Origin: a virus | IMG/VR virus record: IMGVR_UViG_3300037245_003639 | Length of the DNA: 64,000 nucleotides | Reading direction: 5' to 3' (one strand) | Shown: piece after piece, positions 1 through 5,137 of the stretch | How the letters are laid out: the number at the start of each line of letters is the position of its first letter | Numbering within the stretch: the stretch's first letter is position 1 | Translations under genes and position numbers: made by a program | The notes under the pieces: generated by a model | Seen by the model: only the letters and a program-made list of their open reading frames with translations | Told to the model about the DNA's origin: nothing | Databases searched by the model: none

Positions 1-329
1 ATCGGCATACAGAAATATTCGACGCAACAAAGCGGGTCTGTCACTCTATGCGCATCATGTCCAAACAGGGCCTCTTTGTACTTCGCAATGGTCGAACACA
101 GTACACCTGTATCCTGAATACATTCACATGCAGTCTTGAATCTATCCTCTATTTCGCAATAGGATGACCAGCAGTTGGTGCATACACATCCGACATCCAC
201 GTTTTCACCACATGGTTCTGTTCCATCCAGTTCAACGCATCGATATGGTTTGATGGGATCATCTGCCTGGATGAGTGCAACTGCCAGCAGAACAACAGAC
301 AATCCGATGAAAATCTTTCCAAACTTCAT
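1..329 (-). CDS. Partial CDS whose 3' end runs off the left edge of the window. Secreted Cys-rich protein, N-terminus MKFGKIFIGLSVVLLAVALIQA.
   Basis: ATG at 327-329 on the minus strand is preceded by AGAGGAG and a 5-nt spacer. The reading frame stays open for about 109 codons to position 1. The N-terminus is a signal-peptide-like hydrophobic stretch followed by many Cys. It is absent from the ORF track because there is no stop codon inside the window. Confidence 0.55.
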   Translation of the reverse strand, partial: MKFGKIFIGLSVVLLAVALIQADDPIKPYRCVELDGTEPCGENVDVGCVCTNCWSSYCEIEDRFKTACECIQDTGVLCSTIAKYKEALFGHDAHRVTDPLCCVEYFCMP

Positions 330-343
330 GTTTACTCCTCTAA

Positions 344-1663
344 TTAAATCGGTCCCCGTTTCTTCTGTTCACGCGTCAGAATGCTATCCAGTCTCGGCTT
401 GAGATAATTCTCGAAGATGTCGTCAATCGGCTTCCTGAGATTGTCCCGCCTTTCAAGTAACTGTGGGTTCTTTGCATCACTCGCTATCTGGGTATCAAGC
501 CGGACAATATCATCTGCTTTTTTCCGCAGATAATTTTGCGCTTGTTCTTTACAGCGACCGTGAACCTGCCATGCTTTCTGTTGTTGCTCATCGTCTAGTC
601 GGTAATGTCGGATAAAATTCGCAACGTATTTTTCCCACTCACTTAACGTCAACTTTTTCTTGACCGGTTCCATGCGGACGAGATGTTCCGTTCCGTGTTT
701 CCATGCATATTCAATAGATGGTCCCGGTTTCTTTATGCCCGATTTGACGGCAGCACTCCATTCCTCGGCTGTCACAATCTCCTGTCCGTCCCATATATGT
801 TCCCCGGTTGGAACGAAAATTATGGTGCCAGCTTCTATCCCAATATCGTTAGGTTTGATCTGTTTAAGTGTGGCATCATCGAATGTGGCGCTCTCAACTT
901 CGATGACCTTTTGGAGTTCACCACTTACGTAAAAAGAACACATTTTGGGAAACCATGTGCCGTTTGGACTTTGAGAAAGCTTGCTTATGACAGAAACTTC
1001 GTTGTCTTCGCCATATTCTATAGCGACCTTTTCTGGATTCCAACCCTTGTTTGGGTTGATATGCCACACCCAGGTCGGTCCTTCATCCTGCACAGCCCGA
1101 AGAACGTGAACACCGTCCTCATTGATTTCCTCTGTTATCTCCGTACCGATGAGACCGAATACGTCGTCAGTTCCCATGAACCGGTTTGATGGAAACTGAG
1201 TTATTAATCCTAACGAGCGAATATCATAAAAGCGACCAATGCGTAGCCGCCATTCTTCTACGTTTTGATCTTTCCAATGCTTGGCCACAAGCATGCCTTT
1301 GAGATGTGACCATACTTCGCCATTTTGCCTGATAAGACCGCCTCTTGTGGATGTGATCTGAGGAACGCCATCCTCATCGTACTGGAATACGCCTGACAAA
1401 TCCCCTCGATCGGTGTACGACATGTCACCATTCAACGCGTAGCGCGAACGATGCAGCCGCTCAACGGTCTCAGAAGTGCCTGCCCAGTTATTTCTTCGAT
1501 CCGTGGGATCTTTGTTGAATTCGATGGATTTCCAACGAATATCCGCTCCGGCGAGACTCTTGCGACTCTCCTCCGCCATCTGCAACGCCATAGGCATATC
1601 TCCGTGGGTCAAAGACGCACCAGAGATAATGATAATCAGCCCAACTAAAAACTTCCCAAGCAT
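344..1663 (-). CDS. Secreted or periplasmic protein of unknown function with an N-terminal signal peptide (439 aa)
   Basis: The ORF is 439 aa and starts MLGKFLVGLIIIISGASLTHG, a signal-peptide-like stretch. The RBS GAGGAG lies 8 nt upstream of the ATG. I recognise no catalytic motif. Confidence 0.6.
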   Translation of the reverse strand: MLGKFLVGLIIIISGASLTHGDMPMALQMAEESRKSLAGADIRWKSIEFNKDPTDRRNNWAGTSETVERLHRSRYALNGDMSYTDRGDLSGVFQYDEDGVPQITSTRGGLIRQNGEVWSHLKGMLVAKHWKDQNVEEWRLRIGRFYDIRSLGLITQFPSNRFMGTDDVFGLIGTEITEEINEDGVHVLRAVQDEGPTWVWHINPNKGWNPEKVAIEYGEDNEVSVISKLSQSPNGTWFPKMCSFYVSGELQKVIEVESATFDDATLKQIKPNDIGIEAGTIIFVPTGEHIWDGQEIVTAEEWSAAVKSGIKKPGPSIEYAWKHGTEHLVRMEPVKKKLTLSEWEKYVANFIRHYRLDDEQQQKAWQVHGRCKEQAQNYLRKKADDIVRLDTQIASDAKNPQLLERRDNLRKPIDDIFENYLKPRLDSILTREQKKRGPI

Positions 1664-1679
1664 TTCAAGTTCTCCTCTT

Positions 1680-2627
1680 CTAATGAACCATCACGCTGCC
1701 GCGTCTACCTTGAGAATCAGTTATTGATATTTTGACCGCTGACGCTATCTCCGTCTGTTTCGTAAGTAATAGCCCATCCTCAACGACCTTGGCTAGAACA
1801 GCGTCATCAGAATCAACAGTAACGATATCGACTGTTTCACCTTCAGTATCGAAAAATTGAACAGTATTCTGTGATCCTACAGGAAGGACCATGCGTGATG
1901 GAATTGCACGCAGTTCTTGAGAACCGACAGCTTTTACGAGAAGGACTTGTTTCGATACATTGTCGTCCGACGTGGTTATTCGCAAAGTCCCAACGTTGAT
2001 GCCAGGAGAAAGCCGATCCTTATCGATTTTCACAACAACGGCTGTTTGGCGCAGATCACCGTCATGCCTTTCTTCTTCGACGTATTCTGCAATCAACCAT
2101 GCCGAGTTGGTTTGAGGTTCACCGACCAAGAAAAGCGATTCACCTTCGAATATAACTGAATCGGAATATTCCGCATCGTCATTGAGCGGGATCTGACCAA
2201 AATCCATAACGCGTTTAGTCAAGGTATACGTGGGGACAACCGTAACGGTCATCTTACCTTCATGCTCCTGACCATCATCGGTTGTGATTTTAAGTCTCTT
2301 GACTGAACGTCCAGGAACTACCCCCACAGCGAAATTCAAATCTAATTCGATATATTCGCCGGGTCGTATCTCAGAACCCATGTATTTCTTGGCATTCATC
2401 CGGGTGCAGCCACAATCCTTGCCGATGCCGCTGATGGTAACTAGATGATCGGTGTTGTTGACGAACTTCCATGGAAAATTAACTTCGGATTTCCATGTTC
2501 GCTCTCCCAAATCAGTTATTGGGGGATCAAATCCAATAACTACACCGTTTTTTTGTGGTTCAGGATTCCACCAATAAAACCCCACAACGACCACAAGAAC
2601 AATAACAACAGAAATTAGTTTTGACAT
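1680..2627 (-). CDS. Membrane-anchored protein with two DUF1573-like repeats (DCGCT motif), about 315 aa
   Basis: The true start is the ATG at 2625-2627 (MSKLISVVIVLVVVVGFYWW), preceded by AAGGAGAGG and a 4-nt spacer. The extra N-terminus in the ORF track (MACHLPVTCLSPACHLPACHL) is a translation of the upstream tandem repeat. The sequences ISGIGKDCGCTRMN and MDFGQIPL resemble DUF1573 (FDFG..., SCGCT). One N-terminal TM helix is present. Confidence 0.65.
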   Translation of the reverse strand: MSKLISVVIVLVVVVGFYWWNPEPQKNGVVIGFDPPITDLGERTWKSEVNFPWKFVNNTDHLVTISGIGKDCGCTRMNAKKYMGSEIRPGEYIELDLNFAVGVVPGRSVKRLKITTDDGQEHEGKMTVTVVPTYTLTKRVMDFGQIPLNDDAEYSDSVIFEGESLFLVGEPQTNSAWLIAEYVEEERHDGDLRQTAVVVKIDKDRLSPGINVGTLRITTSDDNVSKQVLLVKAVGSQELRAIPSRMVLPVGSQNTVQFFDTEGETVDIVTVDSDDAVLAKVVEDGLLLTKQTEIASAVKISITDSQGRRGSVMVH

Positions 2628-2683
2628 GTAACCTCTCCTTTGACGAACCTGACATTCATCGTTTGTATATAAAGAGATGTGAA

Positions 2684-2720
2684 AAGTCAAATAAAAAGTC
2701 AAATAAAAATCAAATAAATG
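2684..2720 (-). repeat. Three tandem AT-rich 12-bp repeats, (A)GTCAAATAAAA. On the minus strand they read TTTTATTTGACT, each carrying a -35 like TTGAC.
   Basis: Direct repeats at 2684-2696, 2697-2708 and 2709-2720, about 60-95 nt upstream of the DUF1573 gene start. A TATATACA box follows downstream on the minus strand. Confidence 0.5.
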
Positions 2721-2775
2721 ACAGGCAGGCAGGTGACAGGCAGGTGACAGGCAGGTGACAGGCAGGTGACAGGCC
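2720..2775. repeat. About 4.5 copies of a tandem 11-bp GC-rich repeat, GACAGGCAGGT. An iteron or operator-like array.
   Basis: A perfect tandem array is visible. It is intergenic, upstream of gene 1680..2627. Confidence 0.7.
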
Positions 2776-2787
2776 AAAAGCGAGCCT

Positions 2788-2820
2788 CCTAAAAGGTGTC
2801 GGGCCTCACATTACCCCGAC
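2788..2820 (-). terminator. Possible intrinsic terminator: hairpin GTCGGG-N11-CCCGAC followed by a U-rich tract on the minus strand
   Basis: The inverted repeat is at 2798-2820. An A-run at 2788-2796 on the plus strand gives the U tract on the minus strand. It lies about 150 nt downstream of the gene 2974..3729 stop. Confidence 0.3.
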
Positions 2821-2973
2821 TGGGAGCGTTATAGCTATGGCTTAACTCGCTGCCCTCACGGCCTTATCCGTAAGCGTAGTCGCATTTGGTAGCGTGCATC
2901 ACGCTCGACTTGCCCATCACGACTCCAGAACAAGTCAACCCTTGGGTATGATGCAAATGTCATTTTTATCCCA

Positions 2974-3729
2974 TTACAAAGATAGGGCGTGAATAACACC
3001 AGTGCCAAACAGTCGTCTCTCCCAGCGCATTGCAGGCGTAATATGCTGGCATTGCCAATCCGCACAATCCATATCCTCATCAAAAACCGCTATTGTGTTC
3101 AAAATACAGTCCAATTCACCATGGCCATCACCCAATTCGATGGTTTGACTGCCGCTGGTCTTAGCTTTAACCCTTACTTTCGCGACCGTTACTGGACATG
3201 GCGGACTACCACTGCTACAGGTATTCTCGCACCAAACACACTCAACTACTCCATGTTCCTTATCGAACCTAATCACCATAAACGCGTAATACCCAGTAGT
3301 GTTATCCAAATACCAATTGGTGAAATTTAAATCGTCAAGGACGATCGTCGGCGGCCCGTCTTCAACCTCGAACAAATCTGGATCAAAATCCAAAACCGCC
3401 TGAACACCGTAACTTGCCTCGTTATCCGAATCGCCGTCATCACTCTCCCAGGCAACCGCTAACTCCACCCAAAACCACTGACCCACAGCAACCGATGAAG
3501 GAGCGGAAAGGGACAAGTAACTGCACGCATTTGTCTCGCATTCGTCTTCACAAGGAGCCCCACCATCCATCGCCGGCGTGCCCGTGCCTCCCCCATAGTT
3601 CAGGATATCGTAATATGGAAATTCCAAAACCATCGCAGCTTGCGCCTCAGGCGCGGGTGAATTAAATACGAACCATCCTCCTACAATAAGCAGGAATACA
3701 ATACAACCTAACATCTTTTTACTTCTCAT
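2974..3729 (-). CDS. Secreted Cys-rich protein of unknown function (251 aa)
   Basis: The N-terminus is signal-peptide-like: MRSKKMLGCIVFLLIVGGWFVFNSPAPEAQAA. The RBS AAAGGAGAAAGA precedes the ATG. There are many Cys and Asp residues. Confidence 0.6.
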   Translation of the reverse strand: MRSKKMLGCIVFLLIVGGWFVFNSPAPEAQAAMVLEFPYYDILNYGGGTGTPAMDGGAPCEDECETNACSYLSLSAPSSVAVGQWFWVELAVAWESDDGDSDNEASYGVQAVLDFDPDLFEVEDGPPTIVLDDLNFTNWYLDNTTGYYAFMVIRFDKEHGVVECVWCENTCSSGSPPCPVTVAKVRVKAKTSGSQTIELGDGHGELDCILNTIAVFDEDMDCADWQCQHITPAMRWERRLFGTGVIHALSL

Positions 3730-3755
3730 TCTTTCTCCTTTCAGAAAGAGTTAAA

Positions 3756-3768
3756 GGGCATAATGCCC
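3756..3768. promoter_or_regulatory. Perfect palindrome GGGCAT-A-ATGCCC between the -10 box and the RBS of gene 2974..3729. Candidate operator.
   Basis: A 6-bp inverted repeat with a 1-nt spacer sits in the 5' leader. Confidence 0.35.
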
Positions 3769-3775
3769 ATCTAAG

Positions 3776-3795
3776 CATTCATTATACACGCAGAA
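3776..3795 (-). promoter_or_regulatory. Sigma70-like -10 region, GCGTGTATAATGAA, first copy of the recurring (G/T)TGTATAATG motif
   Basis: TATAAT with an adjacent TG lies about 55 nt upstream of the ATG of gene 2974..3729. The same box recurs at 7319, 10529, 11967 and 53478. Confidence 0.5.
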
Positions 3796-3841
3796 AAGGA
3801 CGGACTCCGGAGAACCGGTGGTTGTATATACATGCCGCTTG

Positions 3842-4093
3842 TCATTTTTTATCCCAATTTATCTCTTTAGGCGTCCCATCTCCATAAAGAAAATACCGAG
3901 GCGGATGATCGCAGACATCATCGCACATGCAAGATGCTGTGCGAGCTACATGCCGCTTGTCATCATCACACCACCACGACGTGCATCCGTCATACTTCCA
4001 CTTGCCACCGAGGCGCTTTTCAAGATATTTGGTTTTGTTCTTGCAGTGGAAGTTTAAGTCCAGCTTTTTCACGTTGGTCCATCCATTTCTCAT
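3842..4093 (-). CDS. Small Cys-rich protein (83 aa)
   Basis: The ORF has about 9 Cys. It overlaps the 3' end of the HNH gene. Confidence 0.4.
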   Translation of the reverse strand: MRNGWTNVKKLDLNFHCKNKTKYLEKRLGGKWKYDGCTSWWCDDDKRHVARTASCMCDDVCDHPPRYFLYGDGTPKEINWDKK

Positions 4094-4718: not shown

Positions 4719-4931
4719 TTAGGATTCAACATCCGGATTAAAAGGTGGAGGCCAATTCTTTTGAGTTTCTCTAATCCGTTCATAAAGAAAATCGCTTGCT
4801 TGCTCATCAAGAACTCGTTGCACTCGCAGAGCCACCGCTTTCCATTTCACAGGGCCAACTTGATCCAACAAACCAACAATATCATCTGCCGCTTGCTCTG
4901 CTTCAGGACTTATCTTTGTCGAATCTTGCAC
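4719..4931 (-). CDS. Hypothetical protein (70 aa, GTG start)
   Basis: GGAGATTGCA precedes the GTG at 4929-4931. Confidence 0.4.
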   Translation of the reverse strand: MQDSTKISPEAEQAADDIVGLLDQVGPVKWKAVALRVQRVLDEQASDFLYERIRETQKNWPPPFNPDVES

Positions 4932-5137
4932 TGCAATCTCCTAATTCCCGCCAACCGGCGAAATGGTTCCACCATTGCTTGAGAAAGAGCAACGCGACCT
5001 TCGTCGGTGTTCAATGTTTGTGCGATGATGTGATTCAAATCTACAGTACCACATTTTGGACAATAATTGAATTGTCTTTGGTCACCATGCTTGCATTTAC
5101 GACATCGCTGGAGATTATCCAGTTCCATTTTCGGCAT
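4910..5137 (-). CDS. Small protein with an N-terminal zinc ribbon. Its C-terminal half copies the capsid N-terminus.
   Basis: The N-terminus is CRKCKHG...CPKCG. The C-terminal half, IIAQTLNTDEGRVALSQAMVEP, matches residues 14-36 of the 289-aa capsid candidate. The DNA at 4981-5030 is about 48/49 identical to 15246-15296. Confidence 0.5.
   Translation of the reverse strand: MPKMELDNLQRCRKCKHGDQRQFNYCPKCGTVDLNHIIAQTLNTDEGRVALSQAMVEPFRRLAGIRRLQCKIRQR

Follow-up and report, generated by a model that had tools for sequence, protein, structure and literature searches.

The closest described counterparts of the genes at this locus are the phage 'morons', host-derived accessory genes for envelope proteins such as lambda bor, lom and the superinfection-exclusion lipoproteins of prophages. 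Among promoters, the nearest comparison is with those carrying homopolymer tracts, which are phase-variable in Bordetella fim and Neisseria opc/porA. The window (the whole 64-kb stretch of viral DNA that was analysed) begins with four minus-strand genes proposed in an earlier sequence-only reading, all of which the ORF listing confirmed, and with the following elements.

<1..329, minus strand: 5' part of a gene for a small secreted Cys-rich protein (109 codons, 12 Cys; ORF and translation), cut by the window edge
344..1663, minus strand: gene for a 439-aa secreted protein with a signal peptide, a beta-rich domain and then a helical domain
1680..2627, minus strand: first operon gene; its 315-aa DUF1573 product has a membrane anchor at the N-terminus and C72-x-C74 (DCGCT)
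2632..2640, minus strand: Shine-Dalgarno sequence AAGGAGAGG of the DUF1573 gene (ATG start)
2662..2690, minus strand: candidate sigma-70-type promoter predicted from sequence, TTGACT (2685-2690), 17 nt spacer, TACAAA (2662-2667)
2682..2719, no strand: three AT-rich 12-bp units, TTTTATTTGACT on the minus strand (TRF and repeat search)
2720..2775, no strand: perfect head-to-tail 11-bp array, CCTGTCACCTG on the minus strand, 4.5 copies (TRF)
2776..2973, minus strand: 198-nt spacer between two transcription units
2958..2973, no strand: right-hand copy of the imperfect direct repeat TGTCATTTTT(T)ATCCCA that brackets 2974..3729
2974..3729, minus strand: gene for a near-orphan protein of 251 aa, all-beta, secreted and Cys-rich (12 Cys), signal peptide site AQA/AM
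3727..3776, minus strand: 5' UTR of 2974..3729, with hairpin 1 and hairpin 2
3781..3788, minus strand: TGTATAAT box, a promoter-like -10 element that recurs in the phage
3840..3856, no strand: left-hand copy of the bracketing repeat, overlapping the stop codon of gene 3842..4093

The first three genes appear to form one unit, a phage-borne version of a trio that is conserved in Planctomycetota (class Phycisphaerae and relatives). The joint reading, of a captured Planctomycetota operon with a host-type promoter, a periplasmic role and a slippage array, next to a separate 2974..3729 cassette, is in our judgement fairly likely. Like morons, these are self-contained units with their own candidate promoters in a non-conserved region, their products are predicted to be exported, and they are absent from related phages; unlike morons, a whole three-gene bacterial operon would have been captured here, by a phage of about 400 kb, and neither a lipobox nor an exclusion function nor lysogeny is in evidence. 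N-termini were judged by a Kyte-Doolittle/AXA heuristic, and the proposed signal peptides or TM anchors were borne out as hydrophobic N-termini in four of four proteins, each with a basic n-region, one hydrophobic stretch and no further TM-like window. Three have AXA-like cleavage sites (IQA/DD, THG/DM and AQA/AM, the slash marking the cut; IQA/DD is that of the <1..329 product), and the DUF1573 protein, which has no good site, is therefore a predicted anchor. These features support the prediction that all four are secreted or membrane-anchored envelope proteins.

The DUF1573 assignment was confirmed by a Pfam search (PF07610, 42.7 bits where the cut-off is 26.1, E 5.9e-11), and DCGCT is in place. 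Full-length homologues (27-36% identity) stand first in bacterial modules, and the CxC is invariant in their alignment. PMC9312934 and PMC13188914 list DUF1573 selenoproteins of the UGC form; selenoprotein members have U-G-C as the equivalent of CxC, and the motif is therefore probably redox-active or metal-binding. The protein resembles DUF1573 at large (the selenoprotein OS_HP2 forms included) in its score above cut-off, Ig-like (HYDIN/VesB-like) fold and CxC, and differs from other members in that the module type has about 320 aa, a membrane anchor and some 200 extra residues conserved within the trio only.

The 439-aa protein is modelled as a periplasmic LolA/RseB-type hydrophobic-ligand barrel (LolA/LolB/RseB-like, beta-rich, about residues 40-290) followed by a CpxP/Spy-type helical chaperone or adaptor domain (CpxP/CnrX-like, about residues 299-434, ending in ILTREQ). 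Unlike LolA, LolB and RseB (MucB), it matches no sequence profile and has the fused C-terminal helical domain, and its gene adjoins DUF1573 and Cys-rich genes instead of lolCDE or rseA. Unlike CpxP, Spy and CnrX (the LTXXQ family), its helical domain is joined to a LolA-like barrel and is not a free small protein, there is no cognate sensor kinase gene nearby, and Pfam LTXXQ gives no match. The third trio member is probably the <1..329 product, on weak sequence evidence with which position and composition agree: along 82 aa it shares 32% identity with the small protein of L002, a bacterial module, and a profile built from 23 small Cys-rich proteins linked to such modules matched it alone among window ORFs (18.5 bits, E 3e-5).

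The conserved trio consists of a membrane-anchored DUF1573 protein in which the CxC is invariant, a secreted protein of about 450 aa and a small secreted one containing 11-17 Cys. It was found in bacterial loci L002, L003/L004, L023 and L024, amid housekeeping genes and with a variable order of genes 2 and 3, and all 80 genome loci of the 439-aa family are from Planctomycetota. Among 34 close-subfamily genes, 13 have a DUF1573 neighbour, 18 an adjacent Cys-rich small ORF and 12 both. These counts point to an uncharacterised three-gene cell-envelope operon that, the phage copy apart, appears confined to Planctomycetota bacteria, and the suggestion that DUF1573 hints at host lineage or horizontal capture stands. 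From the folds and the gene neighbourhood, the trio would be exported in the infected cell as a periplasmic handling or chaperoning set, in which the anchored CxC protein and the LolA/CpxP protein may process or transport either the small, disulfide-rich protein or a different hydrophobic component of the envelope. The outcome would be an altered envelope, or altered envelope-stress signalling, to the benefit of the phage.

Proteins of the window also occur on a 403,172-bp contig, and because of this the "left end" of the proposed cluster is only the edge of the window. The window carries a major head protein, a large terminase, an RNR and a LAGLIDADG endonuclease, with nearly all genes on one strand, and the capsid protein has 115 relatives in IMG/VR (72-96% identity) on contigs of up to 548 kb. 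In 81 related viral loci (1.36 Mb) with the capsid gene in common, no trio gene was found, IMG/VR scans gave no trio homologues, and the window genes at 1-13.3 kb, a homing endonuclease excepted, have no credible homologue in those 81 loci. A match of gene 4910..5137 (25-54 aa) to related loci is probably spurious, falling at the start of their capsid gene. The trio and its surroundings thus appear to be a fast-turnover accessory region of a phage of about 400 kb (megaphage).

Alternatively, the left 2.7 kb could be bacterial chromosome flanking an integrated prophage, and the operon the host's own. Elsewhere the trio is found strictly in bacteria, an att junction could be concealed in the repeat-containing 346-bp gap, and the left flank lies outside the stretch analysed. 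Against this, the 403-kb contig is within the size range of the capsid relatives' viral contigs (257-548 kb), the window contains no integrase or tRNA, identity to the nearest bacterial homologues is just 42% and 36%, and the left part resembles the rest of the window in strand, gene packing and GC content (46%), whereas the genomes of the homologues have 60-69% GC. Such a host flank is very improbable.

In the captured operon, a host-type sigma-70 promoter would transcribe the trio, its -35 hexamer being the last of the three AT-rich 12-bp units and the remaining units occupying the UP-element position. Bacterial modules have TTGAC(A/T/C)...TAnAAT at the equivalent place, directly upstream of the first gene. 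A consensus scan missed the candidate because its predicted -10 (TACAAA), a mediocre one, does not end in T. The 12-bp repeats were recovered by TRF (2682-2718, period 12, 3.2 copies, 96% identical) and show no enrichment elsewhere in the window; two copies have TTGACT and one has TTGATT. The 4.5-copy 11-bp array was likewise recovered (TRF 2726-2774, period 11, 100% identical), some 35-90 bp upstream of the -35 hexamer. Its first unit (from 2720) bears an extra CAGG, giving a nested (CAGG)3 at one array end, and tandem arrays are far above chance expectation. Outside the array the 11-mer has no copy in 64 kb at up to 1 mismatch and occurs at chance level at 2 mismatches. Sequence and copy number are the same in the independent JGI assembly L008 (2103 bp, 100% identical). 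One Logan contig ends within the array.

The most plausible reading of the array is a young tandem repeat, generated by slippage in the region upstream of the promoter, and it may modulate promoter output. Its description as "iteron-like" was not upheld. A further alternative is a replication origin in which the 11-bp units are initiator iterons and the AT-rich 12-mers a DNA-unwinding element. Direct repeats beside three AT-rich 12-mers in a 346-bp non-coding gap do resemble an iteron-origin layout. Iterons, however, are usually 17-22 bp, spaced and slightly degenerate, and the units here are 11 bp, contiguous and identical, with no dispersed copies and no initiator, Rep or other replication gene adjacent; GC skew keeps its sign around 2.7 kb, with only 2.7 kb to the left, and the AT-rich units double as the -35/UP region of a promoter before a gene. 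An origin is extremely unlikely.

Slippage upstream of the DUF1573 gene might instead vary trio expression stochastically, as in host operons, where G/C tracts 9-12 nt long lie between TTGACA and the -10, a feature shared with phase-variable promoters. Overall, host homopolymer tracts are of 8-18 nt and lie in the -35/-10 spacer (L023, L024, L026, L035, L037, L065, L032) or within the 5' portion of the coding sequence (L004, L039, L040, L051). Of 26 tracts 8 nt or longer, 19 fall in the 1.9 kb before the LolA-like gene, a stretch that makes up 22% of the sequence (binomial p 5e-8). These tracts at the same promoter position hint at repeat-tuned expression, and the phage copy has perfect 11-bp, 12-bp and 4-bp repeats at the equivalent place, which, being perfect, are probably young and slippage-prone. 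In the spacer, AGGAGG (2785-2790) is followed after 7 nt by an in-frame TTG (2775-2777), from which a frame (listed as ORF 1680..2777) runs through the repeats into the gene and would be shifted by an 11-bp step; homologues have short N-termini, so this extension is probably unused. Unlike those of phase-variable promoters, the phage repeats lie upstream of the -35/-10 spacer and not inside it, gain or loss of a 12-bp unit still leaves a -35, 11-bp steps preserve helical phase, and no array length variation was observed between the two independent assemblies; homopolymer lengths, for their part, are error-prone in metagenome assemblies. Contingency-type tuning is unlikely. The spacer also holds a weak terminator-like hairpin (GTCGGG 2815-2820 / CCCGAC 2798-2803, T4 at 2791-2794), its RNA folds no better than shuffles (z -1.1 and -1.3), and 2776..2973 has no Rfam or tRNA match.

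The gene at 2974..3729 had been counted as a fourth member of one cluster, from which it is now removed, as it is absent from all bacterial modules. Its product has a single homologue, P0023 (58% identity), and no match in 80 Planctomycetota loci; an AF2 model was unusable (pLDDT 44). It appears to be an independent inserted cassette outside the trio, encoding an orphan secreted protein, and the direct repeat that brackets it is a possible insertion scar, with modest statistics. The 13-nt palindrome GGGCATAATGCCC was confirmed between TGTATAAT and the Shine-Dalgarno AAGGAG, and lies in hairpin 1 of the 5' UTR (3756-3768); in hairpin 2, UCUUUCU pairs with purines just past the Shine-Dalgarno sequence (3735-3740). 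The 5' UTR folds with an MFE of -16.2 kcal/mol (z -3.45), which 2 of 200 shuffles equalled. The homologue L021 has the same two-hairpin layout with an unrelated hairpin-1 sequence, GTCAAGgtggCTTGAC.

The palindrome had been taken as an operator, in a reading where early superinfection-exclusion or receptor-masking genes are under repressor control through it and the 11-bp iteron-like array. The proteins are predicted to be exported or in the envelope, both units have their own promoter-like elements, and an envelope role in infected cells, exclusion included, is compatible with all observations. On the other side, there were no PADLOC or PHROG matches. The cluster is on the strand of the structural genes and downstream of them. 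No repressor gene was identified nearby, and neither the 11-mer nor the palindrome recurs at another promoter in 64 kb. The palindrome class is within chance frequency: first-order Markov simulations give 33 +/- 5 perfect inverted repeats with arms of 6 or more and a spacer of 0-1, and the window has 27. As there is no close relative for a conservation comparison, the iteron, operator and "early region / superinfection exclusion" proposals are unsupported; repressor-controlled exclusion is distinctly unlikely. The different hairpin at the same 5'-UTR position in the sole homologue fits RNA structure better than a shared operator, and from this comparison of two sequences the palindrome reads better as the stem of the first of two 5'-UTR RNA hairpins.

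Expression of 2974..3729 would be driven by the phage's own recurrent TGTATAAT box. Its exact sequence occurs seven times in the window, each time on the gene strand; 1.6 copies are expected, and none of 100 shuffles had as many as 7. Of these copies, five (3788, 7327, 10537, 11975 and 14323) lie from a few to about 55 nt upstream of listed ORF starts, the sixth (53488) is followed by an ATG after 19 nt, and the seventh (56208) is at a gene junction.

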